Positions 7,269 through 58,689 of a stretch of DNA of 58,689 nt are shown in pieces. Made by a program: the position numbers and the translations under genes. The notes under the pieces were generated by a model. It saw nothing but the letters and a program-made list of their open reading frames with translations. It made no database searches and had not been told where the DNA came from. Source of the stretch: Clostridia bacterium. GTDB lineage: Bacteria > Patescibacteriota > Microgenomatia > UM-FILTER-40-11. Location: NCBI GenBank assembly GCA_035529915.1, contig DATKVU010000025.1, positions 1 to 58,689 on the forward strand, written 5' to 3'. Each line of letters begins with the position of its first letter. The first letter of the stretch is position 1.

Positions 7269-8069
7269 TCAACCCACATTAATCCTCATATCAAGCTCTT
7301 TATCGTAAACCCATTTTCTTTTATTTTTACTGTCATAATATTTAAGAATTTTCAAACGGTAAAAAACGGCCAAGGTGTCGAGCAGCATATCTAAAACAGT
7401 GGAAGTTTTGATGCTTGAATATTTGAATTTCCTGGCGTCCATTTCTACCGGACCATCATGAATTTTTCGAAAGCCAAGACGGTAAGCTACTGACAGGATT
7501 TCAATATCGAAGGCATACTCTTTCACTAAAAGCCTAGGCAAAACTTTTTCCAGCACCTCCCGCCGAAAAATTTTAATCCCCCTTTGACTATCGGTAATTC
7601 TCAATCCAAATAAAAACTCAACTAAAAGATGATAACCGAAGCTGAAAATTTTTCTTTTAAGGGGGTAACCAATAACCTTGGAGGCGGAATGTCTGATTGA
7701 GCCAACAATCACGTCTGAGCCATACCATTTCATATGTTCCAAAAGCATCGAAAGCGCATTGGGGTTAATATCCATCCCGGCATCGATAAAGGCGATTAAA
7801 TTGCCCTTAGCCCGAGCCATTCCATACCGAACGGCATAACCCTTACCGTGATTAGTCTGATAACCGACCACCTTTATTTTCGGAGAGCCGAGCCGGCGGG
7901 CTGCCTTAAAAGTCTTATCCGCCATTCCATCCACGACGCAAATAATTTCATAGTCGCAGTTTATTTGCTGCAAAACGCTCTCGATGTTTTGTAAATCTTT
8001 AGCAATTGTTCCTTCCTGCCGGTAAGCCGGGACAATAACGGAAAGCGTTTCTTTTATCTCTTTTGCCAT
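7269..8069 (-). CDS. family 2 glycosyltransferase, Dpm1/polyprenyl-phosphate glycosyltransferase-like
   Basis: 266 aa with LSVIVPAYRQEGTIAKDL, YEIICVVDGMADKT, NHGKGYAVRYG, AFIDAGMD, SQRGIKIFRREV and AFDIEILSVAYRLGF. No TM tail. Confidence 0.75.
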   Translation of the reverse strand: MAKEIKETLSVIVPAYRQEGTIAKDLQNIESVLQQINCDYEIICVVDGMADKTFKAARRLGSPKIKVVGYQTNHGKGYAVRYGMARAKGNLIAFIDAGMDINPNALSMLLEHMKWYGSDVIVGSIRHSASKVIGYPLKRKIFSFGYHLLVEFLFGLRITDSQRGIKIFRREVLEKVLPRLLVKEYAFDIEILSVAYRLGFRKIHDGPVEMDARKFKYSSIKTSTVLDMLLDTLAVFYRLKILKYYDSKNKRKWVYDKELDMRINVG

Positions 8070-18123: not shown

Positions 18124-18136
18124 TCTTTTTGATTAT

Positions 18137-20152: not shown

Positions 20153-20162
20153 CTCTCGGTTT

Positions 20163-27999: not shown

Positions 28000-28044
28000 T
28001 AAAAGAATTCGGTTGTTTATCCAAGAAAGGGGCAACTGAAGAAA

Positions 28045-44368: not shown

Positions 44369-45250
44369 TTAAATTTTGGATTTAAGCTTGAAGCGCAATT
44401 TTTCAAAAATGCCGGAAGCCGTCTTTTGACGCCAATAAAGGTAGTCGTGGATGACTTTTTCCATCTCTTGGTCTATTGCTTCAATCTTTTCTTCTTTGAA
44501 ACCTTCCTTTTCCCAAACTTTTAAATATAAAACCAGCTCTGAAAAAGACTGCAAAAGGGCCAAAGCCAAACCGTGCAAGCCGTCTTTGTAGCCTTCTGCA
44601 GCAAAAAAGCGAGAGAAAAACTCGTCTGCCGGCTTAACAATTAAATCCTGCCAGTTAAACTTTTGGTTGCTATTCAACAGCTCCTCTGCTTGAATATCCG
44701 TATAACGATTAAGTCGTTCAATAAATTGGGAAATCGACTGAAAATTGTGGTGGATTAGGGCATTTTCTTCCGTTGCCTCCAATTTAATTCCTTCTCCTTC
44801 GGTCTTAGGCGAAGAATGAATTCTTTCGGAAAAATTAACTTTGCCTTTCTTAAAAAAACGAACCAAATAATCGGGCCACCAGCGAGAGTGATTTATCCAT
44901 TTTCCAAAAATAATGTTTTTGCGGGGAATCTCCACAAAACCAGCCTCATTCTTCGCTGCTATTTCTTTTAGAATCTCGGCCAAGCCAGAAGATAACTCCT
45001 CATCAGCATCAATGACCAAAATCCAATCACCCTGAGCTTGCCGAAGGGCAAAATTCCTCGCCGGTTCAACAAAGCGGGTATATTGGTGTTGAAAAACCTT
45101 GGCCCCGAATTTTTTGGCCATGGCCACGGTTTTGTCGGTGGAATGCATATCCACTACCACCACTTCGTCCACTAAATCCCTCACTGACTCCAAGCAGCGT
45201 TTAAGATTTGCCTCTTCATTAAAAGTATTAATCACCGCCGAAATTTTCAT
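44369..45250 (-). CDS. family 2 glycosyltransferase, WaaE/LgtF-like subgroup
   Basis: 293 aa with ISAVINTFNEEANLKRCLESV, EVVVVDMHSTDKT, LVIDADE, SRWWPDYLVRFF and YKDGLHGLALALLQSFSELVLYLKVWE. Confidence 0.8.
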   Translation of the reverse strand: MKISAVINTFNEEANLKRCLESVRDLVDEVVVVDMHSTDKTVAMAKKFGAKVFQHQYTRFVEPARNFALRQAQGDWILVIDADEELSSGLAEILKEIAAKNEAGFVEIPRKNIIFGKWINHSRWWPDYLVRFFKKGKVNFSERIHSSPKTEGEGIKLEATEENALIHHNFQSISQFIERLNRYTDIQAEELLNSNQKFNWQDLIVKPADEFFSRFFAAEGYKDGLHGLALALLQSFSELVLYLKVWEKEGFKEEKIEAIDQEMEKVIHDYLYWRQKTASGIFEKLRFKLKSKI

Positions 45251-45292: not shown

Positions 45293-47010
45293 TTAATCTT
45301 AAAAATTTTTACTTCCCCGTTTTCGAAAATCCGCCGGCTATGAATATCGCCTTCACCTAAATTGATTTCCTGCCCTTTAACTAAATAGAGATAGGCAATC
45401 CGGTTTTGCTTAATTAAATTATTGGCAAAATCGTGGCTGTTAGTCAAAAAAAACTGGATGGACTCCTCTCGACGCTTTTGCCATGAATAACCGGAAATTT
45501 CCAAATTCATTTCATCAGCCAAAAAGGTTGGCTTATCCGCTAGAGCCGATACATAGACAGTTGTTTCATAAGCATAAAGGGGCCGCGGTTCAGAAAATTT
45601 ATCACGCCAGGTAAAGTCAAAGGGAGGAGTAAGGACTACCCCCTCCGGCTGGCGGCGAAGAAACTGCAAAGCTTCCAGCTCCTCAAGACTGATTCTCGCC
45701 GGCGGTCGGGACGGCCAATAGCTATTCTTTAACGTTATTACTGTCGTTGGCAGAGTTAAAGCCACCACCATTAGAGGAAGAACTACCCCTAGCCAAACTT
45801 TCCTGCTGCCTTTAAGATTCTCTTGTCTAAGCTGGCCTAAAGATTTCCCGGCCCAAATGGCCAAAAGGAATTGAAAATAATAAAAAAACTGAATGGTATT
45901 CCAAGGGTTGCCTTTTTGAATAAAAATCAAGGGTAACATCAGGGCAATAAATGTCGCCGCCAGAAAAAATAGTTCTTCTGGCTTAATTTTCCGCCAATTT
46001 TTTAATTCTTGACCGGCCGACCAAAATCCCAAAACCCTCGTTCCTAAATTACCTAAAATAAAAATCCCCAGAGCTAACCCTTCGGCCAAAAACCATTTCC
46101 ACCATTGCCCGGAATTTAAAAAAGTGAGGCGGGCATTTTCGAGCTTAAACCAACCCAAACGGTCGCCAAAGGCCAACATCGTTCGGGGAAACCAAAGAGG
46201 CGAAAAAACCAAAAGCATCCCTGACCGCCAATTAAAAGGTAAGAAAACCGCTAAACTGATAGCCAGAGTAATCAAGAAAAGTTTAATCATTGACCGCCGC
46301 CAAGAGTGAAAATAGAAAGACCAAAGAGTCAAAATGGCCAATCCGCCTAAGGTAATCATCCCCGCGTAAACCTTTATCTCCAGCAAAACCCCAAACAAAA
46401 TCGCAGTTAACCATAAATTTTTTCCGCTGGGCTTTTTGAGAAAATCTTTAAGTTTAACTAACCCGCTTAGAAGAAAAATTAAAGATAGCGCATAGGGTGG
46501 ATTAATTAAAGTCGAAACCGCTTGATTAGCCCAAAAAACTGATTCTCCTCCCCACTGCCCATCCCTAATGAGGCCGGCCAGCCATCCCCAGCTACCGCCA
46601 AAAAAGACAAAAAAGGTCGCCCACCAAGCACTTTTCCTGGAAGCAGTCCAATTGAGCACTAATTTAAAGGTTAAAGTTCCAATTAAAATGGCCATAACCG
46701 GCGGCAGGACCTGAAAGTAGAGAGTAATAACTGAAAGCCCGGTCAAGCGGTGAATTAAAGCCGCCAACAAGTCAAAACCAAAATGGTAATTAGTCAAGTT
46801 AACGCCCGCTAAACCGGGATGGACTAAAGAGAACTTCGCTAGTTGGTTGATGAGGGCCAAATGCCAAATTCCATCATGTCCATTAGGCCCCCAAAAACCC
46901 ATTCCAAAATCATAAGTCAAACCGCTTCTGACCATAGTTAAACTCTGAGCTGCTGTTCCCCCAGCTATCAACAAAGCCAGAAAGAGCTTCTGGTTTTTGG
47001 CCAGTTTCAT
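45289..47010 (-). CDS. large polytopic membrane protein, unassigned GHDGxWH family (putative GT-C)
   Basis: 573 aa. FWGPNGHDGIWHLALINQLAKFSLVHPGLAG. The C-terminal soluble region parallels that of 18137-20152. ATGA overlap with the flippase gene. Confidence 0.55.
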   Translation of the reverse strand: MKLAKNQKLFLALLIAGGTAAQSLTMVRSGLTYDFGMGFWGPNGHDGIWHLALINQLAKFSLVHPGLAGVNLTNYHFGFDLLAALIHRLTGLSVITLYFQVLPPVMAILIGTLTFKLVLNWTASRKSAWWATFFVFFGGSWGWLAGLIRDGQWGGESVFWANQAVSTLINPPYALSLIFLLSGLVKLKDFLKKPSGKNLWLTAILFGVLLEIKVYAGMITLGGLAILTLWSFYFHSWRRSMIKLFLITLAISLAVFLPFNWRSGMLLVFSPLWFPRTMLAFGDRLGWFKLENARLTFLNSGQWWKWFLAEGLALGIFILGNLGTRVLGFWSAGQELKNWRKIKPEELFFLAATFIALMLPLIFIQKGNPWNTIQFFYYFQFLLAIWAGKSLGQLRQENLKGSRKVWLGVVLPLMVVALTLPTTVITLKNSYWPSRPPARISLEELEALQFLRRQPEGVVLTPPFDFTWRDKFSEPRPLYAYETTVYVSALADKPTFLADEMNLEISGYSWQKRREESIQFFLTNSHDFANNLIKQNRIAYLYLVKGQEINLGEGDIHSRRIFENGEVKIFKIN

Positions 47011-48494
47011 TGTTCTTTCCCCAACAGAGAATAAAGTCTGAAAAAATCTTCAAACAAAGATTTACCGATTAAAAAATAAGAAACAAGAAGGTAAACAAAC
47101 CCCCCAGCCAAAATCCTTAATCCCAAAGATAAAATTAAGTTTTCTGTCATTGGTTTAAACAGGAAAACAAAAATTCCCATGACGACAGTGGCTAAAAGTG
47201 GCTTGCCAATTGAGGAGATTAAATCAAACCTCACTGCTTTGCGAGCAATGTAAATTGCAACCCCTGAAGAAAGAGAAATAGTGGCAGCCGCGATTGCCAC
47301 ACCATTAAAGCCTAATTTTATTGCTAAAACCGGCATCAAAGCCCAAGTTAAACCCAACCACATAATCATCAGCTTAAAGGTTTTTTTAATTTGGCCAACG
47401 GCGTTTAAGAGATTGGTCATTGAAGTGGAAATTGTGGCCCAAGCACTGTTAAAGCTATAAAGATAAAGGGCGAGCAAGGCCGGCTCCCACTTTAAGTATC
47501 TAGGAATAACTTTTACCAAATCCGAAGCTAAAAGGGAAAATCCCATTAAAATGGGAAAAGTTAAGAAAGACAAGAAGAAAAGGGTTTTCTCTACCGCCCT
47601 TTTTAGATTCTCCTTTCTATCCTGCATCCGACTATAAGCCGGAAAAGCAACTTTCGAGACATTATCCATCAAAAATCTCAAAGGTTGTTCTGCCCACCTT
47701 TTCGCCCAACCCAAATAGCCTAAACCTGAAGCGCCGATAATGCGGCCAAGAAAGATGGTCATTAAATCATCCTTTACTACTGCCATCAAGGTGTTTGCCT
47801 GATAGGGAACACCAAACTTAAGAAGGCTTGAGAGCGAACGCCGAGAAAAAGCAAAACCAACCCTCCAAGGGGCAATCAAATACATGGAAACCAGACCGAC
47901 GATTCCTCGGGCTAAAACTGCCCAAGTAAAACTGGCCAGACCAAAACCTCGCCAAGCCAACAAAACCGCCAAGAGATTGAAAACTAAAGTTTCCAAAATC
48001 TGGGGAATAATCAGCAAATTAAATTTTAGGTTCCTTTCCAAAAGGATTGAAGGAATGGTTTTTAGCGAAGAAAGAAAAAAGGAGAAGCCGAGGGCATAAA
48101 AAAGAATTACTGCCGACTGACTTAAGTCATATAAATTTTTGACCCAAGGCGAGAGCACGAAGATAACCAAAAGTAGGCCAAAAACCAAAGCCTGCTGAAT
48201 AGTAAAGGTGGTTCTTAAGTCTTTTAGGTCCAGTTTTTCTTTTTTCTGAATCAACGCCGCTGCCAAACCGATGTCAGAAAAATAGGTAAAAAAACTAATG
48301 AAGGCAGAAACCAAGAAAAAAATTCCAAAAGTTTGCGGATCCAAGAAAATCGTTAGAAGAAAGGTTGAGCCAAAAGCAATTCCTTGAATTAAAAAGCTTC
48401 GGGAAACTAAGGAGACAACACTCACCAAAGACCTTCTTTTTACTAAAGAGAAGTCAATTTCATCTGAAAACGTCTCCTCCAGCGCTTCTTTCAT
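47007..48494 (-). CDS. MOP-superfamily polysaccharide flippase (Wzx-like, Polysacc_synt)
   Basis: About 495 aa, hydrophobic throughout. SRSFLIQGIAFGSTFLLTIFLDPQTFGIFFLVSAFISFFTYFSDIGLAAALIQKKE is typical of the family. ATG at 48494 (the track adds a TTG codon at 48497). Confidence 0.8.
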   Translation of the reverse strand: MKEALEETFSDEIDFSLVKRRSLVSVVSLVSRSFLIQGIAFGSTFLLTIFLDPQTFGIFFLVSAFISFFTYFSDIGLAAALIQKKEKLDLKDLRTTFTIQQALVFGLLLVIFVLSPWVKNLYDLSQSAVILFYALGFSFFLSSLKTIPSILLERNLKFNLLIIPQILETLVFNLLAVLLAWRGFGLASFTWAVLARGIVGLVSMYLIAPWRVGFAFSRRSLSSLLKFGVPYQANTLMAVVKDDLMTIFLGRIIGASGLGYLGWAKRWAEQPLRFLMDNVSKVAFPAYSRMQDRKENLKRAVEKTLFFLSFLTFPILMGFSLLASDLVKVIPRYLKWEPALLALYLYSFNSAWATISTSMTNLLNAVGQIKKTFKLMIMWLGLTWALMPVLAIKLGFNGVAIAAATISLSSGVAIYIARKAVRFDLISSIGKPLLATVVMGIFVFLFKPMTENLILSLGLRILAGGFVYLLVSYFLIGKSLFEDFFRLYSLLGKEQ

Positions 48495-48552
48495 CAAATA
48501 ATTCTAGCATAAATAGGGCTGACAATATAATATATAACCAGGATACCATCAA
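48495..48552. promoter_or_regulatory. divergent intergenic region with back-to-back candidate promoters
   Basis: Plus strand TATAAT (48526-48531) with AGGA (48540-48543) 9 nt before ATG 48553, but a weak -35. Minus strand TTGATG (48552-48547) - 17 nt - TATATT (48529-48524), upstream of ATG 48494. Motif reading only. Confidence 0.3.
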
Positions 48553-50106
48553 ATGAGAAAACTGGTTAAAAAGCATCTTCCTCTTTTAATATTTCTTATT
48601 TCTCTTTCTTCTTTTACTTTCCTTTTTTTTATCCAGCGTAACTTTATGACCAATATTGATGAACGCGACCAAATTGTTAACGCTTTCTTGATGGCCAACG
48701 GCTTGAAAGTTTATAAAGACTTTTTTACTACTCATTTCCCTTTGCCTTACTACTGGGTTTATATTTTCACCCCTTTTTGGACAAATTCCCCTCCCCACCG
48801 AGTAATTTCCATCCTCCGTCTAAGCATAGTTATTTTGTATTACTTATCGTTTTTAGCAGTTTTCTTTGTTTCTCGCAGCCGGAAAACCAAAACTGCCCTC
48901 TGTTTATGGATTATTTCCCTTTCCACTTTTGCCAGTCTTTACCATGGAAATCTGCTTCTAAGCGAAACATTTGTGGCAATTTTTATCTCCTCTCTTTTTT
49001 GGTTAATTCTTCCTTTGGTTTTCGCTTGGGAAAAAATTAATTTTGTAAAAAGTGTTTTGATTTTCCTTTTTGTTTCACTGGCTTTCTGGACCCAACCGCT
49101 TCTGGCTCCTTTATTCCTGATTCCTCTTCTTTTAATTCCAGGTAAAATACTAAAAAAGATATTCCCCAGCTTTTTTATACTTAATCTCTTACCATTAGCT
49201 CTCTTTCATTTGTCCGGACAGCTGCAAGGTTTTTGGGAAAATGCCGTTTGGTTTAATTTCAGGGTTTACTCCTCTTTTTTCCCGGAGAGAATTGGCCACT
49301 ATTCAATGCTTCAGCAAAATTTCATCTCTTTCTTTCAAAATGAAATTTCTTTCCTTGAGCCTTTTTCCGGGTTCATTGGCTCTTGGCAGTTTGTCATCCA
49401 CGCGGCTGTCTTGGGTCTTTTGATTTGGACAATTGGCAAAAGAAACTGGCGATTATCAATTTCTTTTTTGCTTCTTTTTTATGGGGTAAGAGCCAGAGAA
49501 ATTAAAATTATCCCGGGAAAAATTTTTAATTTCGGAATTTACCCTCTGGCTCTTTTAGGTTCTGCTAGTTTTATTGCCTTAATAACTTTCATCTTTCCAA
49601 AGAAAAAAATCATCTCTTTACTTGCTTTGGGTTTGCTTTTCGGCCTCAGTATTAAAGAAAGCTTGCCTATCATTAATCAGTCTTTGAAACCTGGTTACAA
49701 TTACCATGTTTTTTGGAGCTGGCGACAAGAAATTGGCGAGACAATAAACAATCTAACCCAGCCAGAAGAGAAAATTTTGATCTACCCTCATGATGTCGAT
49801 CTTTATTTTTTCGCTAATAGAAAACCAATAGACCGCTTTACTTATTGGTTTCCCTGGTTAGATTCAGTGAAAAGATATCACGATGAAAGAGAGACGTCTC
49901 TAAAAACTGCTCCTCCACCAGTAATTTATATTGGCAACTTTACTTATAAAAACAATCCCCATCTTTATGCTCAGTTTTTTCCGGATCTACTTAATGGCTA
50001 CAGTCAAATAGCAAAAAACGGTCAGCCAACAAACATTTGGTTGAGAGATGACCTTAACCAAAGGCTTAAGGCTCCCTATTCTTTGTTCACCACAAACAAA
50101 CAATAA
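48553..50106 (+). CDS. polytopic membrane protein, GT-C-like (singleton)
   Basis: 517 aa multi-TM. Loop 1 TNIDERDQIVNAFLMANGLKVYKDFFTTHFPLPYYW (acidic pair plus a Y-x-D...P-L-x-Y box as in PMT_2/DUF2029 proteins). Second plus-strand gene. Confidence 0.55.
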   Translation: MRKLVKKHLPLLIFLISLSSFTFLFFIQRNFMTNIDERDQIVNAFLMANGLKVYKDFFTTHFPLPYYWVYIFTPFWTNSPPHRVISILRLSIVILYYLSFLAVFFVSRSRKTKTALCLWIISLSTFASLYHGNLLLSETFVAIFISSLFWLILPLVFAWEKINFVKSVLIFLFVSLAFWTQPLLAPLFLIPLLLIPGKILKKIFPSFFILNLLPLALFHLSGQLQGFWENAVWFNFRVYSSFFPERIGHYSMLQQNFISFFQNEISFLEPFSGFIGSWQFVIHAAVLGLLIWTIGKRNWRLSISFLLLFYGVRAREIKIIPGKIFNFGIYPLALLGSASFIALITFIFPKKKIISLLALGLLFGLSIKESLPIINQSLKPGYNYHVFWSWRQEIGETINNLTQPEEKILIYPHDVDLYFFANRKPIDRFTYWFPWLDSVKRYHDERETSLKTAPPPVIYIGNFTYKNNPHLYAQFFPDLLNGYSQIAKNGQPTNIWLRDDLNQRLKAPYSLFTTNKQ

Positions 50107-50283
50107 TCCTCGCGAAAATCTTCCCCATCGTCCTCATAAAGACATTTCAGACTATCATCATGGTAAATTAACCGAGGTCCATTACAATTAGAAAGAGCTA
50201 CTTCCGCTTGTTAGCTGGCTCCACCCCAAGCAGAAGGAACGCCAAGAAGATCAGAACCATTTTTAAAAAAAATCGTAGCTCCT
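50107..50283. other. 177-nt convergent non-coding gap, the largest in the window
   Basis: No ORF with a start codon. Nested imperfect inverted repeats: AAAGAGCTAC (50192-50201) pairs with GTAGCTCCTTT (50275-50285), and TTCCGCTTG (50202-50210) with CAAGCAGAA (50227-50235). T5A8 at 50261-50273. No canonical GC-stem plus U-tract terminator. Confidence 0.5.
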
Positions 50284-50991
50284 TTAGGCAATTTTGGTCA
50301 ATTGAAGATACTTAAAAAGAGTGAAAACTGCCAGCAGCGCATCCTTGGCTTTAATTTTTTTACCTTCTTTATATCCCCGGGGTTGAGTTTTAATAGGCAC
50401 CTCTACAATCGGATATCCTTTCTTTAAAATTTTAGCCGTTATTTCCGGCTCAACCTCAAAACACCGGGAGACAATATTTAAATCACCATACACTTCTTTG
50501 GTCATCATTTTATAGCCGGTTTCCACATCGGTAAGATGAGAACCATAAAGAAAATTGGTTAATCCCGACAAAAATCGATTCGCCCAGTAATGAAGCGGCA
50601 AGGGAGTTTTATTTTTACCCCAAAGCTTAAACTTAAGTTTCTTGAGGCGCGTTCCAAAAACGACTTCCACTTTTCCCAAAATAATTGGCTCCAGGAGTTT
50701 ACAATAGTACTTCGGATCATATTCCAAATCGGCGTCTTGAATAATTAGGACATCGCCGGTAGCATTTTTAATCCCCTTACTTACCGCGGCTCCTTTGCCT
50801 TGGTTGACTTTATGAAAGAATACCCTAATTTCTTTATTTCTGAATTTCTTTATTTCTTCTCTCGTCCCGTCAGTTGAGCCGTCATCAACGATAATTATTT
50901 CCTTGGGAGTTTTTTCAGCCAATACCCGCCTAATAACTCGACCAATGGTCTTTTCTTCATTAAAGACGGGGATAACGACGGAAAGCTTCAT
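50284..50991 (-). CDS. family 2 glycosyltransferase, Dpm1-like polyprenyl-phosphate sugar synthase candidate
   Basis: 235 aa with LSVVIPVFNEEKTIGRVI, IIIVDDGSTDGT, NQGKGAAVSKG, IIQDADLEYDP and TDVETGYKMM. Confidence 0.8.
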   Translation of the reverse strand: MKLSVVIPVFNEEKTIGRVIRRVLAEKTPKEIIIVDDGSTDGTREEIKKFRNKEIRVFFHKVNQGKGAAVSKGIKNATGDVLIIQDADLEYDPKYYCKLLEPIILGKVEVVFGTRLKKLKFKLWGKNKTPLPLHYWANRFLSGLTNFLYGSHLTDVETGYKMMTKEVYGDLNIVSRCFEVEPEITAKILKKGYPIVEVPIKTQPRGYKEGKKIKAKDALLAVFTLFKYLQLTKIA

Positions 50992-52682
50992 TTGAACCGC
51001 GGATAACGAATTTTTCGGATAACCAAGGCCGGGAAAACCAACCAGCTGACCAGAGAAATTAAATTGGCTGCCGTCCGCACGGGAGTGTTAGTAAACTTAA
51101 GCCTTAGTTCGTGATTACCAACGGGGACTTTCACCGTAATTAGTCCCAAAGGGTTATCATAACTGATAGCGACTGGCTGATTATCTAACCAAGCTTTCCA
51201 GCCGGGAAAATAATAAACGGGGATTTCCCACGCCGCTTCTTCCTTCGCCTGAGCTTGAAAAGAATACCAATCGCTCCCCTTCTGAATATTCTTCGCCTCA
51301 GCCGCCCCCGCCTTCAAGATTGGACCAGCTGGGGCCTCCTGAGCTGGTGGCGCTTGAGCATATTTTGGTAAATAATCAAAAATGGCATCCGTTTGCAGTT
51401 TGCGCCAACCCAAGGCCGAAAAGAGTTTTTGCTCATCACTAATCTTAAGAATTTTTTCTACCCTAAAAAAAGAAAAGTTTAAGCTTACCGCCAAAGTTAT
51501 CCCCATTAAAGCCGTCCATTTTGCCCACTTAGTTGACTTAAGGAAAATCATTAATCCTCCCCCCAACACAGAAACAGCAAAAATCACTAATGTCAAAAAT
51601 CGCCAAGGGAATTGTAGGTAAGCCAAAAGGGGGATTTTTTGCCAAATCAAGTTAGAGCGAGGATGAACCAAAAAAAGGCTTAAAAGGAAAAGAGCAAAGA
51701 AAAAGCCCACCAAGAAAACTACCTCTTTTTTAACCCGCCGTCGCCAATAGCCGAAAATGGCGAACGACAACACCAGTACTGCCAGCGGCCAGTGAGGAAA
51801 GCCGACCTGAAACGGCATCCCTGTTTCTTGTAACCAGCCACTAGAACCATAGCCCCAAAACCGAGTAAACAACATTTTCCCAATAGAAACATAATGGGCT
51901 AAGAAGTTGAAATAACCCATTAACATCGTCTCTACGTGAACATATTTTTTTTCGACTAAAACCGGCAGAGTAAAAAAGGCAGCCAGCCCCAAACCCCACC
52001 AACCACCCAAAGCTAACCTAATTATTTTCTCTTTCCCATCTTTCTTCTTTAACCAGATTAAAAGCAAAGCAAAAGCAATGAAGGTCGGCATAAAAATAAA
52101 AGCCATCAGATTGTGGGAAAGCAGCAAAAAACCAAAAAACAACGCCAAAAGAGGCAATTTATTTTTTCCTTTTTCCTCTACCACGATTTCATAAATCGCC
52201 CAATAAACTCCCGGCAGAAACGCTAAGGCCCAAAACTCATTCATTGCTCCCCGAACATAAACATCAACTGCATGATATGGCGCCCATAAATACAAAATAG
52301 CGCTCAAAAGCCCTCCCCAATCTCCCCAAAGTTTTCTCGTAAAAAGAAACATGAGGACTCCCGAAACCAAAAAACCAGCAATGAATAAAAGCTTTACCGA
52401 ATCAATAAAACTTAAACCCAAAAGATGAAAGATTTCGCCTAAGCAGTAGGGAAAAGGTGGGTAGTAATTAAAAAGGGGATAGCCATAAGAATAGCCCATA
52501 TCCGGCACCCAACGGCAAGGAATCTGACCATCCTTCACACACAAATCCATCTGATAAAGCCGCCCGACTTGCAAATCATCATGCATGGGAAAATAACCAG
52601 GTCGGAAAAGATCCCTTGAAGTCAAGAAAGAAGTGGCTAAAATTACTAAAACAAAAAACCAGTAACGTTTAAGAATTTTCAT
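50988..52682 (-). CDS. HD-loop polytopic membrane protein with YfhO-type C-terminal module (paralogue of 26278-27999)
   Basis: 564 aa. YFPMHDDLQVGRLYQMDLCVKDGQIPCRWVPDMGYSYGYPLFNYYPPFPYCLG. C-terminal YYFPGWKAWLDNQPVAISYDNPLGLITVKVPVGNHEL plus a terminal TM. Confidence 0.65.
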   Translation of the reverse strand: MKILKRYWFFVLVILATSFLTSRDLFRPGYFPMHDDLQVGRLYQMDLCVKDGQIPCRWVPDMGYSYGYPLFNYYPPFPYCLGEIFHLLGLSFIDSVKLLFIAGFLVSGVLMFLFTRKLWGDWGGLLSAILYLWAPYHAVDVYVRGAMNEFWALAFLPGVYWAIYEIVVEEKGKNKLPLLALFFGFLLLSHNLMAFIFMPTFIAFALLLIWLKKKDGKEKIIRLALGGWWGLGLAAFFTLPVLVEKKYVHVETMLMGYFNFLAHYVSIGKMLFTRFWGYGSSGWLQETGMPFQVGFPHWPLAVLVLSFAIFGYWRRRVKKEVVFLVGFFFALFLLSLFLVHPRSNLIWQKIPLLAYLQFPWRFLTLVIFAVSVLGGGLMIFLKSTKWAKWTALMGITLAVSLNFSFFRVEKILKISDEQKLFSALGWRKLQTDAIFDYLPKYAQAPPAQEAPAGPILKAGAAEAKNIQKGSDWYSFQAQAKEEAAWEIPVYYFPGWKAWLDNQPVAISYDNPLGLITVKVPVGNHELRLKFTNTPVRTAANLISLVSWLVFPALVIRKIRYPRFK

Positions 52683-52690
52683 CTAAAAAG

Positions 52691-52696
52691 ATTATA
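52691..52696 (-). promoter_or_regulatory. -10-like TATAAT 8 nt upstream of ATG 52682
   Basis: Minus strand AGGTATAAT CTTTTTAG ATG in the 34-nt gap 52683-52716. No convincing -35. The spacing implies a leaderless or near-leaderless start if it is active. Confidence 0.2.
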
Positions 52697-52716
52697 CCTT
52701 TTCACTCCCTCTCCTG

Positions 52717-54216
52717 CTATTTGGCCAACACTTCAAAGAAAAGGAGGTTTTCTTTTCCCTCACGACTTTCAGCTTTTGGATACTTTGCAATGAGGCGCAA
52801 ATTGCTTCGGTTGCTCACCATAAATCGTGAATCATTAACCAGTAAAAAGACGCGGTTACTAACCAAACCGCTGGTTAGCTTACTGGAAATCTCTCTTACT
52901 GGCTCACCCAAACCAATCACCGTTACTCTTGGCGTTTTTTCCAAATATATTTGTAAACCCTCTGGTAAAGTGCCGAAATACCCTTCTGTTCCCACCAAAA
53001 CATTTTCCTTTTTAGCCACTTCCCTAAGGTAATCGGCCGCTTCCTTAATTCCGTATCCTGCTGTCCAAATTTCTAGATAGCCATATCTTTCATTTTTGGG
53101 CAACCAGGCTTTTTGAGGATTCACTAAAAGAAGCGCAATTTGATAGACAGGAACAACAAAAAAAACAATTAAGACCAAAGTGGTTATCCATCGGCTTTTT
53201 AGCGAAGAAAAAATTTTCCAAAGAAGGTAGGCGGCGAAGATTAAAAATATCGGGACTGTAAACAAGATATAACGAGCAGTATAAACTTTGGCAATCGCAC
53301 TTTGGCCTAAAAGCGGGATTAGCAGCCAAAGCCAGAGGAGCCCTCCTTCTTTAAGGTGTCGTTTAAGCACCAAGACTCCCCCGGTGATAGCACTAACAAA
53401 AGAAAGGGGGGTCAAAAAAATCCAAAACCACTCGATTACACTTTTCAGGTTGCCCCAAAAAGGATTTAGGGGGTGACTCAAGACTTCTCGGAAAGAAAAA
53501 ACATAATCCTTATTGCGGATAGCAATCATCTGAAATTCTGGTCCTAGACGAAGAATGTTATAAATAGCAAAACCAAAAAGATAAACAACCCCCCACAAGA
53601 AAACCAATTTAACAATGTTGTAGGGACGCATCATCATGCGTCCGTTCAAGATTATTGTCGTCGGCAAAAGCAGAGCAAAAAAGAGCGCCGGCGATTTAGT
53701 AATCAAACCCAAACCCAAAAGTACTCCTGTGATCATCGCCAGATCCAGCCTTTTTTCTTTTGCCAGTCCTACTGCTCCCACTATCACCCAAATACCAAAG
53801 AAAGAAAGCAAACCGTCAGCCAACGCCAGCCGATCAAAAAAGAAAGTGAATGGTGAAATCAAATATAAAATAGCTCCCAAAAAAGCCACTTCTTTCTTTT
53901 TAAAAAGAAGCAGGCTTAAAGTAAAAATTCCTACCATCGTCCCCAAACCGGCTCCCACCGAGACTAACCGACCGGCGACCAGGGGATCGGAGAATATCTT
54001 TAAAAAGGGCATTATTAACCACATAAATAAAGGCTGTTTACCGTCAGATAAGGGCAAAAAACGCAAAGTACTTACCGCCCGCATTACTTGAGCCCAACGG
54101 ATATAAATTGCTTCATCAACAAATACCGGAATTATGGTCAGATTGATCAACCGCGTGACGAAGTAAGCAAGAATTAAAAAAGCGCCTAGTATGCAATCTT
54201 GAACTTTCAATTTCAT
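52717..54216 (-). CDS. ArnT/PMT_2-like GT-C glycosyltransferase (singleton)
   Basis: 499 aa multi-TM. Loop 1 IPVFVDEAIYIRWAQVMRAVSTLRFLPLSDGKQPLFMWL (DE-x-Y and K-x-PL boxes of ArnT-type enzymes). Confidence 0.75.
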   Translation of the reverse strand: MKLKVQDCILGAFLILAYFVTRLINLTIIPVFVDEAIYIRWAQVMRAVSTLRFLPLSDGKQPLFMWLIMPFLKIFSDPLVAGRLVSVGAGLGTMVGIFTLSLLLFKKKEVAFLGAILYLISPFTFFFDRLALADGLLSFFGIWVIVGAVGLAKEKRLDLAMITGVLLGLGLITKSPALFFALLLPTTIILNGRMMMRPYNIVKLVFLWGVVYLFGFAIYNILRLGPEFQMIAIRNKDYVFSFREVLSHPLNPFWGNLKSVIEWFWIFLTPLSFVSAITGGVLVLKRHLKEGGLLWLWLLIPLLGQSAIAKVYTARYILFTVPIFLIFAAYLLWKIFSSLKSRWITTLVLIVFFVVPVYQIALLLVNPQKAWLPKNERYGYLEIWTAGYGIKEAADYLREVAKKENVLVGTEGYFGTLPEGLQIYLEKTPRVTVIGLGEPVREISSKLTSGLVSNRVFLLVNDSRFMVSNRSNLRLIAKYPKAESREGKENLLFFEVLAK

Positions 54217-54219
54217 CTT

Positions 54220-54981
54220 CTAATTTATCGAATATAAACCTTTCAAATCATTAAGCTTCACTCGAAAAATCTGCTTTAGCATTTCCAAAGATTCTTTAAG
54301 ATAACTCTTTTTTTTGCTGGTGCTCACATCCCTGTCTTTCCATTCCACGGCGACTTCTTTGATTTTGTAACCAAACTTTTCCGCTAGGAAAAGAAGTTCG
54401 ACATCAAAAGAAGTCACTTTCCACCCCCTAACTTGTTTTTTCTGTCGGAAAAATTCTAAACGCGGAAAAATTTCCTTAGCCACTTCTGCCCTCAAGGCCT
54501 TAAATCCACACTGCGTGTCTTTAATCCCTCTTAAAAAAAAGGCTTGACGAATTAACCGAAAAGCTACCGAACCGACCTTTCTAAGAACCCCAAAGTTTTC
54601 CCTTATTGATCCTCGGGAACCAATCACCACTTCATATTCATCAAAAAAAGGCATCAATTTTGAAACCTCCTTCAAAGGAGCTGATTGATCCATATCGCTA
54701 AAAAGGACATATTCTCCTTTGGCCTCTTTTATCCCTCCCCAAACCGCTGACGGCTTTCCGCCGTGCAAGTTTTCTACCAGCCGAAAACCAGCCTTTCCTA
54801 TAACGGCCTTTTTGACCAACTCTCGACTGTTATCGGTTGAACCATCATCTGAAACAATTACCTCCCAACTAAACCTTTGCTTTCCCAAAAAATTTTCTAC
54901 TTCTTCCAAAACCCCCCGCTCAAGATTTTCTCTCTCGTTATAACAAGGAATAACAACTGATAAATAGGGCCGTTTAGTCAT
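54220..54981 (-). CDS. family 2 glycosyltransferase, ALG5/Dpm1-like polyprenyl-phosphate sugar synthase candidate
   Basis: 253 aa with LSVVIPCYNERENLERG, EVIVSDDGSTDNS, LFSDMDQS, DTQCGFKALR and SFDVELLFLAEKFGYKIKEVAVEWKD. Confidence 0.8.
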   Translation of the reverse strand: MTKRPYLSVVIPCYNERENLERGVLEEVENFLGKQRFSWEVIVSDDGSTDNSRELVKKAVIGKAGFRLVENLHGGKPSAVWGGIKEAKGEYVLFSDMDQSAPLKEVSKLMPFFDEYEVVIGSRGSIRENFGVLRKVGSVAFRLIRQAFFLRGIKDTQCGFKALRAEVAKEIFPRLEFFRQKKQVRGWKVTSFDVELLFLAEKFGYKIKEVAVEWKDRDVSTSKKKSYLKESLEMLKQIFRVKLNDLKGLYSIN

Positions 54982-56503
54982 TAAACTTTATCCTTTCTCT
55001 TTTCTGGACAGTAATATCCCCCCAGAAGTCATTCTTAATCGCTTTGCCGATGGTATCTTGCCGTTTTTGCCAAGCTTGTAAAAACTGGGGGTGCTCACCG
55101 TCAGGTTCATAAAGAGTATAAAGATTTTTGACCAGCTTTGTTTCCGGTTCTCGACCATATTTGGTTTGGCCATACCAGCGGAAAAGATAGGAATATGAGT
55201 AAAATATCTGCGGCGGAACATAAGCGTCAATATTAAACTCCTCATCCTTAGCATCCTCATAAATCCAGTCAATCGCCCAAGTTTGAGCTTTTAGAGTAAT
55301 CCCAATTCCGGTCTTAAGATAGTTTTTGATAAACCGTATATTACCAAACGCAAAAAGTATCAAAAATATTCCCAAGACCACCCGAGGAATTAAATTTCTA
55401 TCCGCCAAAGATTTTAAGCCGGCCGCCAACAGGATAATAAAAGCCGGAATAACGCCGGTAAAATAATAATCCCAAACATAGCCGTGATTCCCTCGGTAAA
55501 GCAGAAATCCCAAAATGGGAGAGACCAGCCAGATTAAAAGCAGTTTCCCGCCCGGACTAAAGACCTTTTTCCGGGAAAAAAGGAGCGTTGCGGAAAACAA
55601 GGCTAAAAGCCCCATCTTGACCCATTTTTGGCCAAAAGAGAACTTGCCGAAAAAGACATCATAATAGGTCAGAAGCCTCAAGCGCATAGTTTGAACCAGA
55701 GAAAGGCCAAAACTTCGCTCTCCCACCAAGAAACGATGGAAAGCATCCCGCAAAATTCCTTGATGTCGCCAATCGAAAACGATCTGGGGCAACAAAGTCG
55801 CCAAGAAAGCCAGGAAAGCCAAAACTAAAACGGTAGGCTTTTTAAAAATCCGCCTTTGCCAAAAAAGAATCCCCAAAGTCGCCGGTAAAAACCAAACTGC
55901 CGATGCCGCTTCCAGTTGTAAACAAAGTCCGATAAAAAAAGCCGCCCCAATCAAGGCCTTATCTCTACCCTTAACAAAAATGTAAAGAAAAAAAAGAACA
56001 ATCATCGTAAAGAAGGGCAGAGGGCTGGGGTTAGCCAGCCAGCGGCTGAAAACCACTAAGTCATAAGAAAAACCGTAAAGGAAAGCGGCCAATAAACCGA
56101 CTTCCCGACTGTAAATTTCTTTTCCCAAAAGGTAAATCAAAAAAATGGCGCCCACGGTTAGCCAGGACTGGCCAGCCGCCGCCATCACCGGACTCCCTTT
56201 ACCGAGCCAATAAAAGGGCATCAAAAGATAATAAAAAAACGGCCCCAAATAAATACCCTCGATACCGGTTACCGGACCAATTAAAAAGAATTTCCCATAA
56301 TGGAGGAAGTCCCAAATCACTAAGGCGTCTCTTCCCTGGTCATACCAGAAACCGAGAAGGTCATTTAATCGATACAGCCTAAAGAAAGCCGAGAAAGAGA
56401 GAATGAGAAAAAGAATAAAATAAATAGTCTTGTGAGCTTTTATTTCCTTTCCCAGCCCCACTAAGCAACTTTGAATTTTGGACTGCAACTTTGAACTACT
56501 CAT
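54974..56503 (-). CDS. COG1807/ArnT-like GT-C glycosyltransferase, family 2 paralogue
   Basis: 509 aa multi-TM. Loop 1 GFWYDQGRDALVIWDFLHYGKFFLIGPVTGIEGIYLGPFFYYL. Confidence 0.7.
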   Translation of the reverse strand: MSSSKLQSKIQSCLVGLGKEIKAHKTIYFILFLILSFSAFFRLYRLNDLLGFWYDQGRDALVIWDFLHYGKFFLIGPVTGIEGIYLGPFFYYLLMPFYWLGKGSPVMAAAGQSWLTVGAIFLIYLLGKEIYSREVGLLAAFLYGFSYDLVVFSRWLANPSPLPFFTMIVLFFLYIFVKGRDKALIGAAFFIGLCLQLEAASAVWFLPATLGILFWQRRIFKKPTVLVLAFLAFLATLLPQIVFDWRHQGILRDAFHRFLVGERSFGLSLVQTMRLRLLTYYDVFFGKFSFGQKWVKMGLLALFSATLLFSRKKVFSPGGKLLLIWLVSPILGFLLYRGNHGYVWDYYFTGVIPAFIILLAAGLKSLADRNLIPRVVLGIFLILFAFGNIRFIKNYLKTGIGITLKAQTWAIDWIYEDAKDEEFNIDAYVPPQIFYSYSYLFRWYGQTKYGREPETKLVKNLYTLYEPDGEHPQFLQAWQKRQDTIGKAIKNDFWGDITVQKRERIKFND

Positions 56504-58041
56504 TTATTGTGCATTAATTTAAATAGTTTCACTCCCCAAGGAAAGGTCCATTCTTCTTCTATCTTACTCCAACCAAAGCTGGCAATTTCAGCTTGGGGAT
56601 GGGTAGTCGGTTCACAAACACTCTCTTCACAGACAACAAAGAGCTGGTTGGTAATCGTTTCTTCTGACCGCTGAGCATCAATCATCGCCGGTTTATATCC
56701 GGCTTTTTCCAAAAAATAACGGTAGCCGGCATCATAATTCTGCTTAGCGATTAATCCAAGATTGAAAGGTTTTCCTTCCGCCTCCTCAACTATTTTTTGA
56801 CTAACCATAGCCGTGTGTTGCATCTGGAAATTAGGACTTCCCCTCAAGGGACAAGCCTCAAAAGCAAAGTAAAATATCGCCACCAGCCCCGCAACCGCTA
56901 AGATCTTTCCCGCTTTCCCTACCTCCCAAGCTTTACCTAAGGAAACCGCCATCAACAGAAAAATCGCCGGGAAAAGAAAACCGAAGTAATGACCATAAAT
57001 ATGCTGTTTATAGAGTCCCATTCCCCAAAGGCCAATCAAAATCCAGCTTAGTAAGAGAAATAACCCCCGACCTTCTTTCCTCTTCCGCTTGTCTCCGACA
57101 ACTAAGAAAAAGGTAATTGTGGAGAAAATTAATAGAAGCGGAGATAGCCAGGAACCAAAAACTGCATCCCGGCTGGTCAAAAGGCACGTCACCATCATCT
57201 GCCAAAGCGGCCAAAGTTGAGGAATTGCCTTATACGGCTTTAGACTAACCGTCGCCTGCCGATCAGTAAAAAAACGGTAAAAAGCCTTATAGTTAATAAA
57301 ATTATGACGTAAATCAAACCAAATTAAAGGCAAGATAGACAAAACGAAAAAAGTCATTATTCCTAAGCCGGTCCAAATTAAAAAGCTTCTGGTTTGGCGA
57401 TTTTTAGTTCTTAGCAAATCTCTTAATTTCACCAACCAAAACAGGCCGGCCACCGGCAAAAGAAGCAAGCCCAGATAGTGAGACTGAATCGCTACCGAAC
57501 AACCCAAACCAACGACCACCATTCCCCAAAATTGGTTCCTTTGCCAAAATTGCCAGACTCCCCAAATTGAAAGCAGAGCAAAGAAGGGCATAATATTCGG
57601 ATTCCAAGCAGAACGCGAAAGAACAATCGCTACTGGCGAGAGGGCATATAAAAGGGCAGCCAGCAAACCGACTTTTTGAGAAAACCATTCCTTGGACACA
57701 AACCATAAAAGAAAGGCAGTTGCACCCCCAAGCAAAGCCGTGCCGATTGAAGGCCCAGCAGTTCCTAAAAGAAGATAAAAGGGCAGCATTAAGTAATAAA
57801 AAAGGGGGGCCAAGTACATATTACCTATTGAAGTCTGTGGTCCAATCAAGGTGAATTTTCCTCTGCTCATTCGCAACCAAACCAAAGCGTCTCTCCCCTC
57901 ATCCCCTAAAAAAGTCATATATGAGCCGATTCGCCAAAGACGCAAAAAAAGCGCTAGACCGACAATAAAAAAAATCGCTCCCGCCAACCGCCAATTTTTC
58001 CTAAGCCAACTGGTTAATTCTCTTATTTTATTTGCCACCAC
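56500..58041 (-). CDS. COG1807/ArnT-like GT-C glycosyltransferase, family 2 paralogue
   Basis: 513 aa multi-TM. Loop 1 TFLGDEGRDALVWLRMSRGKFTLIGPQTSIGNMYLAPLFYYL. GTG start (58041 or 58038) overlapping the upstream GT2 3' end. Confidence 0.7.
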   Translation of the reverse strand: MVANKIRELTSWLRKNWRLAGAIFFIVGLALFLRLWRIGSYMTFLGDEGRDALVWLRMSRGKFTLIGPQTSIGNMYLAPLFYYLMLPFYLLLGTAGPSIGTALLGGATAFLLWFVSKEWFSQKVGLLAALLYALSPVAIVLSRSAWNPNIMPFFALLSIWGVWQFWQRNQFWGMVVVGLGCSVAIQSHYLGLLLLPVAGLFWLVKLRDLLRTKNRQTRSFLIWTGLGIMTFFVLSILPLIWFDLRHNFINYKAFYRFFTDRQATVSLKPYKAIPQLWPLWQMMVTCLLTSRDAVFGSWLSPLLLIFSTITFFLVVGDKRKRKEGRGLFLLLSWILIGLWGMGLYKQHIYGHYFGFLFPAIFLLMAVSLGKAWEVGKAGKILAVAGLVAIFYFAFEACPLRGSPNFQMQHTAMVSQKIVEEAEGKPFNLGLIAKQNYDAGYRYFLEKAGYKPAMIDAQRSEETITNQLFVVCEESVCEPTTHPQAEIASFGWSKIEEEWTFPWGVKLFKLMHNK

Positions 58042-58689
58042 AACTTACCTAATTCAAAAAATGATTTAAAAATGACTCTCGGCCCCGCCCCCGTCTGTTT
58101 CCCGCCTCCCCGCGGAAAGTGGCCAACTCCTACTTCCGTTATCTTAAAACCCGCTTTCCCCGCCCGGGCTAACAGTTCGGGCGAGATCATTCCTCCCCGA
58201 GTTGACTGGAGAGGGGGAATGGTCTTGATAACCTTTCTTTTAATTAATTTGAAGGCACAATCGACATCGCGGACACTAATTCCCAACAAAATTTTCGACA
58301 ACGTCGTCCAGCCCCAACCGAAAAGTTTCCTTTTGAAAGAATCCTGTCGATTAAGGCGATAACCCACTATCACATCGAATTCCTTCGCTTTCTCAATTAA
58401 TTTCGTCACTTCGGTAAAATCAAACTGACCGTCGGCATCGATAAAGGCAATCCATTCATGCTGACTGTTGTAAAAACCGGACTTAAGCGCCGCTCCGTAG
58501 CCTTGATTAGAAGGATGAGTGATCACCCGAATAAAAGGGTTATCTCGAGCTAAATTTTGGGCAATTTCTCCGGAACGATCCTTCGAGCCGTCATTAACAA
58601 TAATTAATTCGTATTTCTTAGCGATTTGCCGAAGAACCGGAATGACATCTTTAACTGTTTTTTCTAAATTCGCTTCCTCGTTATAAACC
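58023..58689 (-). CDS. family 2 glycosyltransferase, Dpm1-like (5' end outside the window)
   Basis: The track ORF starts at an internal GTG (58526), but the frame stays open to the window edge. My translation of 58527-58559 reads QNLARDNPFIR, continuous with VITHPSNQGYGAALKSG. Downstream boxes are FIDADGQFD and RDVDCAFKLI. Stop at 58023. Confidence 0.8.
   Translation of the reverse strand, partial: VYNEEANLEKTVKDVIPVLRQIAKKYELIIVNDGSKDRSGEIAQNLARDNPFIRVITHPSNQGYGAALKSGFYNSQHEWIAFIDADGQFDFTEVTKLIEKAKEFDVIVGYRLNRQDSFKRKLFGWGWTTLSKILLGISVRDVDCAFKLIKRKVIKTIPPLQSTRGGMISPELLARAGKAGFKITEVGVGHFPRGGGKQTGAGPRVIFKSFFELGKLWWQIK

Follow-up and report, generated by a model that had tools for sequence, protein, structure and literature searches.

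The seven-gene block and its surroundings

The stretch of DNA analysed here (the window; 58,689 bp) is the whole of contig C25 of its assembly, and all of it forms a single glycosylation super-locus. At its far end lie seven genes in which short glycosyltransferase family 2 (GT2) genes alternate with genes for large membrane proteins assigned to the glycosyltransferase C (GT-C) class, and which an earlier note on this DNA had described as stacked lipid-carrier glycosylation modules without a GtrA-type flippase. All seven open reading frames (ORFs) were present as claimed, all on the minus strand, and Pfam searches gave their transcription order as GT2, GT-C, GT-C, GT2, GT-C, PTPS-related GT-C and GT2 (Table 1). 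We refer to the three GT2 genes of this block as synA, synB and synC, and to two related GT2 genes elsewhere in the window as synD and synE. The genes are tightly joined: in the longest ORFs, followed in the direction of transcription, neighbours first overlap by 19, 4 and 8 nt, are then separated by 3 and 34 nt, and finally overlap by 4 nt. The 19-nt overlap between synA and the following GT-C gene was also found in the gene calls of a metagenome contig of about 80% identity. This gene order is not due to chance, because it recurs in 25 related loci of the class.

As C25 is a complete contig, the gene at 58023 (synA) is truncated by the contig end and not by a biological boundary, and the lack of anything upstream of it therefore represents missing data rather than absence. 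The contig carries 11 PMT_2 matches (E ≤ 1e-5), two YfhO and two PTPS_related matches, one GT87 and one PIG-V-like protein, as well as 14 GT2s, two GT4s and two MOP flippases, and the database matches to its proteins bear the names Candidatus Microgenomates or Shapirobacteria. Its coding fraction is 98.8% and its largest uncovered stretches are 229 and 177 nt long, which leaves no room for a small gene encoding four transmembrane (TM) segments. A scan of positions 48300-58689 for terminators and promoters returned counts not above those of shuffled sequences, and nothing in the 177-nt gap after synC. The assembly itself (G000) comprises 1.15 Mb in 198 contigs.

Table 1. Genes of the seven-gene block, in transcription order, followed by other genes of the window that bear on its interpretation.
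Feature	Coordinates	Strand	Evidence and remarks
synA, GT2, polyprenyl-phosphate sugar synthase clade	58023..58689	-	PF00535 E 1.7e-31, profile positions 6-166; about 12 N-terminal aa cut by contig end
GTC_56500, GT-C, PMT_2/PMT type, 513 aa	56500..58041	-	PMT_2 36.2 bits, PMT 35.2 bits; overlaps synA by 19 nt
GTC_54974, GT-C, PMT_2 type, 509 aa	54974..56503	-	PMT_2 40.5 bits
synB, ALG5-like GT2, 253 aa	54220..54981	-	PF00535 E 4.3e-25
GTC_52717, GT-C, PMT_2/PMT type, 499 aa	52717..54216	-	PMT_2 39.4 bits; 3 nt downstream of synB
PTPS_related (PF10131) GT-C-fold membrane protein, 564 aa	50988..52682	-	29.5 bits (cut-off 26.4)
synC, AglJ/DPMS-like GT2, 235 aa	50284..50991	-	PF00535 E 1.1e-37; overlaps PTPS-like gene by 4 nt; last gene of transcription unit
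MOP-family (Wzx-like) flippase	47007..48497	-	Polysacc_synt_3 E 1.1e-57; first gene of next minus-strand unit
synD, ArnC/GtrB-type synthase, two C-terminal TM helices	42026..42913	-	ArnC match; outside seven-gene operon
synE, fifth synthase-clade GT2, no TM segments, degenerate DXD	7269..8069	-	tree clade; outside seven-gene operon

Candidate lipid-phosphate sugar synthases and their GT-C neighbours

We constructed a maximum-likelihood tree from the GT-A domains of 34 of the 36 PF00535 matches in the assembly, together with those of the DPMS of Pyrococcus furiosus (PfDPMS), ArnC and GtrB, for which we used the sequences given in the PDB alignments. The five candidates of the window (58023, 54220, 50284, 42026 and 7269), which the earlier note had singled out as possible synthases, all fell into one DPMS/ArnC/GtrB clade (branch support 99/98) whose only other members were the five corresponding GT2s of other contigs, the GT2 that carries a GtrA domain, and the three references; the 23 other GT2s of the assembly all lay outside it. 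Two GT2s encoded on C108 and C125 were considered as additional synthases and rejected, as they cover the full PF00535 profile but stand outside the clade on long branches. In the short GT2s, PF00535 covers positions 1-164/168.

Comparisons with solved structures agreed with the tree. When searched against the PDB with phmmer, 50284, 54220, 58023 and 42026 had DPMS, ArnC and GtrB as their top families, whereas a control GT2 from the same window (44369-45250) matched GmaR and SunS instead. The best matches of synA were ArnC (1.5e-15), GtrB and PfDPMS, and those of synB were PfDPMS (1.7e-14), ArnC and GtrB; synC matched PfDPMS over residues 1-216 (1.8e-15), and synD matched ArnC over residues 2-287, with both TM helices included (E 1.3e-51), and GtrB (5e-30). 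NCBIfam matches over most or all of the protein length were chiefly to AglJ, PpgS, ArnC, PgfS and a haloarchaeal Dol-P hexose transferase. Among these, synC matched AglJ over its full length with 115 bits (cut-off 325 bits) and PpgS with 68.6 bits, synD matched ArnC (NF007986) over its full length with 199 bits, and synE had PgfS, PpgS and ArnC as its best families; 54220 gave an additional weak full-length match to EpsE (31.5 bits). The AlphaFold2 model of synB (pLDDT 87.6) had a GT-A fold, and its Foldseek matches at ranks 1-25 were all DPMS, ArnC or GtrB structures (E 1.8e-15 to 1e-11, TM-scores 0.61-0.72), with glycan-acting GT2s starting only at about 1e-9.

Residues with assigned roles in the archaeal enzyme were also found in these proteins. 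Asp91 and Gln93 of PfDPMS bind the metal, and Arg117, Arg131 and Ser135 the dolichyl-phosphate group (PMC5526996). Residues D96/D98, R123, R134 and S138 of synB align with D89/D91, R117, R131 and S135 of PfDPMS and are at least 90% conserved in the family. The motifs DADGQ, DMDQS and DADLE of the three short GT2s align with D89-A-D91-L-Q93, and synA, which carries DADGQ, has R, R and G at the positions of R117, R131 and S135. The DTQCGFK motif of synB resembles ALG5. Three close homologues of synB are named dolichyl-phosphate beta-glucosyltransferase by the Joint Genome Institute (JGI), a name that is an annotation and not a test.

No TM segment was predicted in synA, synB or synC, and synD has two (233-251 and 257-275). 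Amphipathic segments are located at residues 131-148 (hydrophobic moment 0.65) and 224-241 of synB, and at 203-220 of synA. Soluble members of the synthase clade include human DPM1 and the catalytic domain of mycobacterial Ppm1. It is very unlikely that the short GT2s are ordinary transferases acting from nucleotide-sugars on glycans or proteins, with the donors for the GT-C enzymes made elsewhere. In favour of that reading, all of them match only the generic PF00535, reach no curated equivalog score and lack TM anchors, but the tree, the PDB and fold matches and the acceptor-phosphate residues favour the lipid-phosphate synthase clade, and the control GT2 of the same window behaves differently. 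We thus found no grouping with glycan-acting GT2s, and we regard membership of the short GT2s in the polyprenyl-phosphate sugar synthase clade as well supported on sequence and predicted fold, best so for 54220. We predict that synA, synB and synC would be active as polyprenyl-phosphate sugar synthases.

The four large proteins contain 8-14 hydrophobic segments each, and their proposed identity as GT-C enzymes was borne out by Pfam scores above gathering (26.1 bits for PMT_2), by acidic motifs that follow the first TM segment (TM1), and by GT-C fold matches of the PTPS-like protein. Directly after TM1, GTC_56500 has G46-D47-E48-G49-R50-D51 (at least 90% conserved in 20 orthologues), GTC_54974 has D55-Q-G-R-D59 (at least 90% in nine orthologues) and GTC_52717 has D34-E35 (at least 90% in 22 orthologues). 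The corresponding motif of the PTPS-like protein, H34-D35-D36, is invariant across 48 homologues at its first two residues and at least 90% conserved at the third, and the PTPS_related family also has an invariant QFPWRF motif. These acidic motifs probably lie in the first extracytoplasmic loop. Among the four membrane proteins, fold comparison by model covered the PTPS-like protein, whose AlphaFold2 model (pLDDT 88.7) consists of a membrane core of helices, followed towards the C-terminus by a beta-sandwich (455-530) and one last TM helix. Its Foldseek matches at ranks 1-34 were all GT-C enzymes (AglB/STT3/PglB, ArnT, AftA, Emb, AftD, Pmt4 and ALG3/12; E 3.5e-5 to 7e-3). A sequence profile of the PTPS-like family gave no match in the PDB at E ≤ 1.

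These matches also bear on an archaeal-style alternative, in which an oligosaccharide begun by synC on polyprenyl monophosphate would be lengthened by soluble GT2 and GT4 enzymes, exported by the MOP flippase and then moved en bloc onto protein by the PTPS-like GT-C, in the manner of an oligosaccharyltransferase. The top NCBIfam match of synC is AglJ, AglB and STT3 are the top Foldseek matches of the PTPS-like model, and the order PTPS-like gene, synC, MOP flippase is conserved. A WWDxG-type motif is a hallmark of oligosaccharyltransferases (OSTs), however, and none was present among the invariant residues of the PTPS-like family. ArnT, AftA, Emb and Pmt4 scored almost equally to the OSTs, at TM-scores of only about 0.4, the family has no sequence relative in the PDB, and the AglJ score is far under its cut-off. 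We therefore consider this pathway unlikely.

In the window, PTPS_related genes are found at 50988-52682 and at 26278-28035 (minus strand), and three tandem paralogues are located on another contig of the assembly (C26:11057-16092). The number of tandem copies varies from 1 to 3 between lineages.

Conservation of the locus and the position of the GtrA domain

The ALG5-like gene synB was present in 32 of 41 genomes of the class, in a single copy in nearly all, and its orthologues were 38-75% identical. We retrieved its surroundings in 23 relatives and mapped the genes against the window proteins, which gave 25 mapped loci. The conserved core reads Ugd, dehydratase/epimerase-like genes, GT2-GtrA fusion, [divergent 393-aa PMT-like gene], [synA], GTC_56500, [GTC_54974], synB, [~385-aa membrane protein], GTC_52717, one to three PTPS-like genes, [synC or other short GT2] and MOP flippase, where square brackets mark genes of some lineages only. 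Every mapped locus has a GTC_56500 orthologue after synA or after the GT2-GtrA gene, GTC_54974 is restricted to the family and some other lineages, and a MOP flippase follows the synthase/GT-C block in most relatives.

Adjacency of synthase and transferase was conserved across the class, most clearly for synB and GTC_52717, which are neighbours in nearly all mapped loci. Among 40 relatives, 30 had both genes, seven had neither and three were discordant, counts that describe a pattern and are not a statistic, as the relatives are not independent. This pattern fits a donor-transferase pair inherited and lost as a unit, and other neighbouring genes of the block may form such pairs as well. The five synthase paralogues are only 25-33% identical to one another and each is kept as an orthologue in relatives, which fits distinct functions and may mean different sugars.

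It is possible, although we think it doubtful, that the donors instead form a shared pool, so that a few lipid-sugars serve any of 20-30 GT-C enzymes, adjacency carries no specificity and the alternation reflects operon history; in mycobacteria, one Ppm1 serves PimE, MptA-D and PMT. The numbers are compatible with such a pool, since 5-6 synthase-clade GT2s face 11 PMT_2 matches on C25 and 13-29 per related genome. Some runs of GT-C genes, such as that at 12370-24567, have no adjacent synthase, and synA is missing in about 10 of the 25 mapped loci while the downstream GT-C gene is retained. Specific pairing is favoured by the joint retention and loss of synB and GTC_52717 across the class, by the recurrence of a short synthase-like GT2 directly after PTPS-like genes in several lineages, and by the tight junctions, with synB and its GT-C gene 3 nt apart and others overlapping by 4-19 nt.

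A second, colinear copy of the entire C25 super-locus was found on contigs C88 and C26, which share an exact 141-nt end overlap, with 44-89% protein identity and about 68% DNA identity; every other genome searched had one copy of the locus. C26 carries the sole trmD-like gene found in an all-against-all comparison of assembly ORFs, and it is syntenic with the relative G006 beyond the locus. As a C25-like JGI contig also has trmD beside the locus, each copy appears to be its lineage's primary locus. The assembly is larger than others of the family (1.15 Mb against 0.7-0.9 Mb) and has 40 PMT_2 matches against 13-29. Recent local duplication was rejected as the origin of the second copy, because the copies are only about 68% identical in DNA and because C25 synB is closer to that of G006 (75%) than to the C26 copy (71%). 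GC content and a principal component analysis of tetranucleotides did not discriminate C25 from C26/C88 as foreign, as all glycosylation contigs were shifted alike. A mixed bin holding two related organisms seems to us likelier than duplication, to which we still leave a substantial chance, and statements on the rest of the genome thus hold for a probably mixed assembly. Among the short contigs C134, C146, C190, C147 and C6, the same two or three genes recur (50-96% identity), a redundancy that suggests a mixture of strains or species in the bin.

The absence of a GtrA-type flippase, claimed in the earlier note, held for the window but not for the system. No free-standing GtrA protein of about 120 aa with four TM segments was found in the window or anywhere else in the assembly, as judged by a PF04138 (GtrA) search and a check of the coding room, and C25 gave no PF04138 match at all. 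The assembly as a whole, however, is not devoid of GtrA, as it contains one match, on C26, which forms the C-terminal 120 residues of a 379-aa GT2 encoded three genes upstream of the C26 counterpart of 58023. In the tree, this GT2-GtrA fusion is sister to PfDPMS (94/93). Upstream of the synA orthologue, fusions of this kind are also located at 47267-48466 in G006, at 384466-385620 in the closed genome G008 and at 278511-279698 in G028. The closest relative that we found, a 199-kb JGI metagenome contig (L047; synB 82% and PTPS-like protein 80% identical to those of the window), has exactly the gene order of the window, with a 380-aa GT2 plus GtrA_DPMS_TM gene two genes before synA and adjoining trmD. 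In every orthologous locus examined in detail (C26, G006, G008, G028 and L047), a GT2 fused to GtrA_DPMS_TM thus lies 1-3 genes upstream. PF04138 matches were present in 36 of 40 relatives, almost always within a frame of 370-450 aa, and in 25 of the 31 relatives with both genes the ALG5-like gene had the match on its own strand, no more than 10 kb upstream. The window extends for just 3.7 kb beyond that gene on its upstream side, and on these sequence comparisons the lack of GtrA is very probably an edge artefact. The unusual feature of this group is the form of the domain: the GtrA/DPMS membrane domain occurs once per genome, as part of a DPMS-like synthase, and there is no free-standing GtrA.

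A true absence of GtrA from the C25 organism, with translocation of lipid-sugars by MOP flippases or by the GT-C enzymes, seems improbable. It would agree with the lack of PF04138 on C25, with a sole assembly match on a contig that may belong to another organism, and with the four of 40 relatives that had no match. A search of the assembly for SMR/ArnEF-type flippases found none, and a MATE/MOP protein fills the flippase role in a pentofuranose three-component system (PMC11127046), so the two MOP flippases of the locus remain candidate lipid-sugar flippases; the flippase role of GtrA is itself unproven (PMC11127046). Nonetheless, the domain occurs in 36 of 40 relatives, and the closest of them, with 82% identity in synB and the same gene order, has its GT2-GtrA gene two genes upstream of synA, exactly where C25 ends.

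We also entertain, with little confidence, an arrangement in which a single GtrA/DPMS domain fused to the first synthase, or no dedicated flippase, serves five or six polyprenyl-phosphate sugars, and the TM-less synthases dock on neighbouring GT-C enzymes that act as their own scramblases. If this were true, these minimal cells would reveal by what route lipid-linked sugars traverse membranes, which is not settled even for Dol-P-Man and GtrA.

Two further features were observed near the fused gene. Between the GT2-GtrA gene and synA lies a divergently oriented gene for a 393-aa PMT-like GT-C protein (C26:22169-23350, plus strand; L047:5015-6196; orthologues in G006, G008 and G028), whose opposite orientation is kept across the class. 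Directly before the GT2-GtrA gene, Ugd and one to four NAD-dependent dehydratase/epimerase paralogues were found in G035, G038, G020, G032, G030, G010, G007 and G028, which suggests that the donor of the GtrA-fused synthase derives from UDP-glucuronate or from a deoxy or pentose sugar.

A proposed multiplied three-component system and its relation to known pathways

Taken together, the stretch appears to be the 5' part of a conserved envelope-glycosylation operon of the Microgenomates (Patescibacteria), at the head of a giant surface-glycan gene cluster. We propose that this operon works like a multiplied three-component system of the GtrB/GtrA/GtrC, ArnC/ArnT or Ppm1/PMT type, and not like one that lacks GtrA, and we put the probability of this explanation as a whole at about three in four. 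In the first step, the peripheral, TM-less synA, synB and synC proteins would transfer the sugar of a nucleotide-sugar to polyprenyl phosphate at the cytoplasmic face. The resulting polyprenyl-phosphate sugars would then be flipped across the membrane, and at the outer face the interleaved GT-C enzymes (three of PMT_2 type and one PTPS-related) would use them as donors. The acceptor would be surface proteins or the glycan exported by the MOP flippases of the locus, and the contig would break one or two genes before a sixth synthase that ends in a four-helix membrane domain of the GtrA/DPMS type.

Elsewhere, the assembly has genes for UppS, for one small phosphoglycosyl transferase (Bac_transf) and for two Glycos_transf_4 proteins, and a polyprenyl-diphosphate-linked glycan could therefore be started. 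Such a glycan would be extended by cytoplasmic GT2 and GT4 enzymes, exported by a MOP flippase and elaborated outside by the GT-C enzymes with polyprenyl-phosphate sugars. Proteins may also serve as acceptors, given the PMT-type enzymes and a GT-C protein fused to TPR repeats that is encoded in the window.

Several observations weigh against this explanation. The GtrA-fused gene upstream of position 58689 is placed there from orthologous loci and was not seen on C25, and the glycan-acting comparators of the tree were the assembly's own GT2s, with no external references. Among the candidate synthases, synC has DADLE and an R at the R117 position only, its R131 and S135 positions are not conserved, and it carries a 9-aa insertion, while synE has DAGMD in place of DADLQ, a degenerate DXD motif. 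All NCBIfam scores fall far short of the equivalog cut-offs and thus do not allow the sugar to be named. For the PTPS-like protein, Foldseek gave low TM-scores (0.32-0.44; TMq 0.23-0.44). Finally, there are far more GT-C enzymes (>20) than synthase-clade GT2s (5-6), so that strict pairing of neighbours cannot hold for the whole locus.

The proposed system shares several features with the three- and multi-component transmembrane glycosylation systems, namely GtrB-GtrA-GtrC of Shigella and Salmonella and the CsbB-GtcA-YfhO and GacI-GacL-type systems of Gram-positive bacteria (PMC8035078, PMC11127046). A GT2 predicted to charge polyprenyl phosphate, a GT-C enzyme predicted to act outside the membrane, clustered genes and, in orthologous loci, a GtrA-family domain are common to both. 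However, five to six synthases and 20 or more GT-C enzymes are stacked here in one super-locus, synA, synB and synC lack the C-terminal TM hairpin of GtrB and CsbB, and GtrA is the C-terminal domain of one synthase rather than a separate protein of about 120 aa. P. furiosus DPMS (PDB 5MLZ; PMC5526996) is the best sequence and fold match of synB and synC, the DxD motif and the Arg/Arg/Ser set are kept in synB, and the GT2-GtrA fusion of orthologous loci, like PfDPMS, combines a GT-A domain with four TM helices. In synA, synB and synC, which are only 27-28% identical to PfDPMS, the chain stops after the amphipathic helices and a TM domain is lacking.

A second parallel is ArnC-ArnT, an undecaprenyl-phosphate L-Ara4FN synthase with a GT83 GT-C enzyme. 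The synD protein aligns with ArnC over its full length and its gene overlaps a PMT_2 GT-C gene by 4 nt, and the Ugd and dehydratase/epimerase-like genes that precede the GT2-GtrA gene in C26 and most relatives recall the Arn pathway. In contrast to that pathway, no equivalents of ArnA, ArnB, ArnD or ArnE/F and no SMR protein were found in the assembly. Bacteria of the candidate phyla radiation have, to our knowledge, no lipid A.

For many transferases supplied by few donors, the best analogue is the assembly of lipomannan/lipoarabinomannan and arabinogalactan, and protein O-mannosylation, in Corynebacterineae, which depend on polyprenyl-phosphate mannose and decaprenyl-phosphate arabinose (Ppm1, PimE, MptA-D, Emb, Aft and PMT). 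There, too, few synthases feed many GT-C enzymes and the catalytic domain of the synthase is soluble. Unlike the mycobacterial genes, which are scattered, those described here are packed on one strand; there is no orthology beyond the superfamily, and these genomes are five times smaller with similar or larger numbers of GT-C genes. The locus thus differs from known systems in its scale, its TM-less synthases, its fused GtrA domain and a PTPS-related GT-C family without a solved relative. A literature search (GT-C, ArnT, GtrA, mannosyltransferase) found no dedicated description of such loci in Patescibacteria or Microgenomates, and a paper on a Saccharibacterium mentions Dol-P-Man synthase copies and a GT87 enzyme in passing (PMC6031116).

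The super-locus spans at least 59 kb in the window and about 55 kb in G006, and genomes of 0.7-0.9 Mb in this family contain 13-29 PMT_2-type GT-C genes and several lipid-sugar synthases. With so many of these genes in small genomes, a complex coat of glycan or glycoprotein, built outside the membrane, must play a central part in the biology of these uncultured bacteria, which are probably host-attached. The conserved synthase/GT-C pairs offer small soluble targets for heterologous assays that could name the sugars and then the acceptors, and one fused GtrA domain, two MOP flippases and TM-less synthases together make a compact natural test case for the flipping of polyprenyl-phosphate sugars.

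Three other genes of the window were noted. Next to the block, 48553-50106 (plus strand) encodes a membrane protein of 517 aa that has about 10 TM segments and matches no Pfam family. Its gene, the sole one on the plus strand in this half of the window, is divergent from the MOP flippase gene; it has a conserved counterpart on C26 (57%), but none was found in G006, G008 or G028. The GT2 used as a control (44369-45250, minus strand) has as its best solved relatives GmaR (E 9e-21) and the peptide S-glycosyltransferases SunS and ThuS, which are protein- or peptide-glycosylating enzymes and not polysaccharide GT2s. The gene at 4380-6221 (plus strand) encodes a protein of 613 aa that has about nine TM segments, matches PMT_2 weakly and carries TPR repeats in a block at its C-terminus, an architecture that recalls the TMTC-type protein O-mannosyltransferases and hints that protein acceptors are possible.

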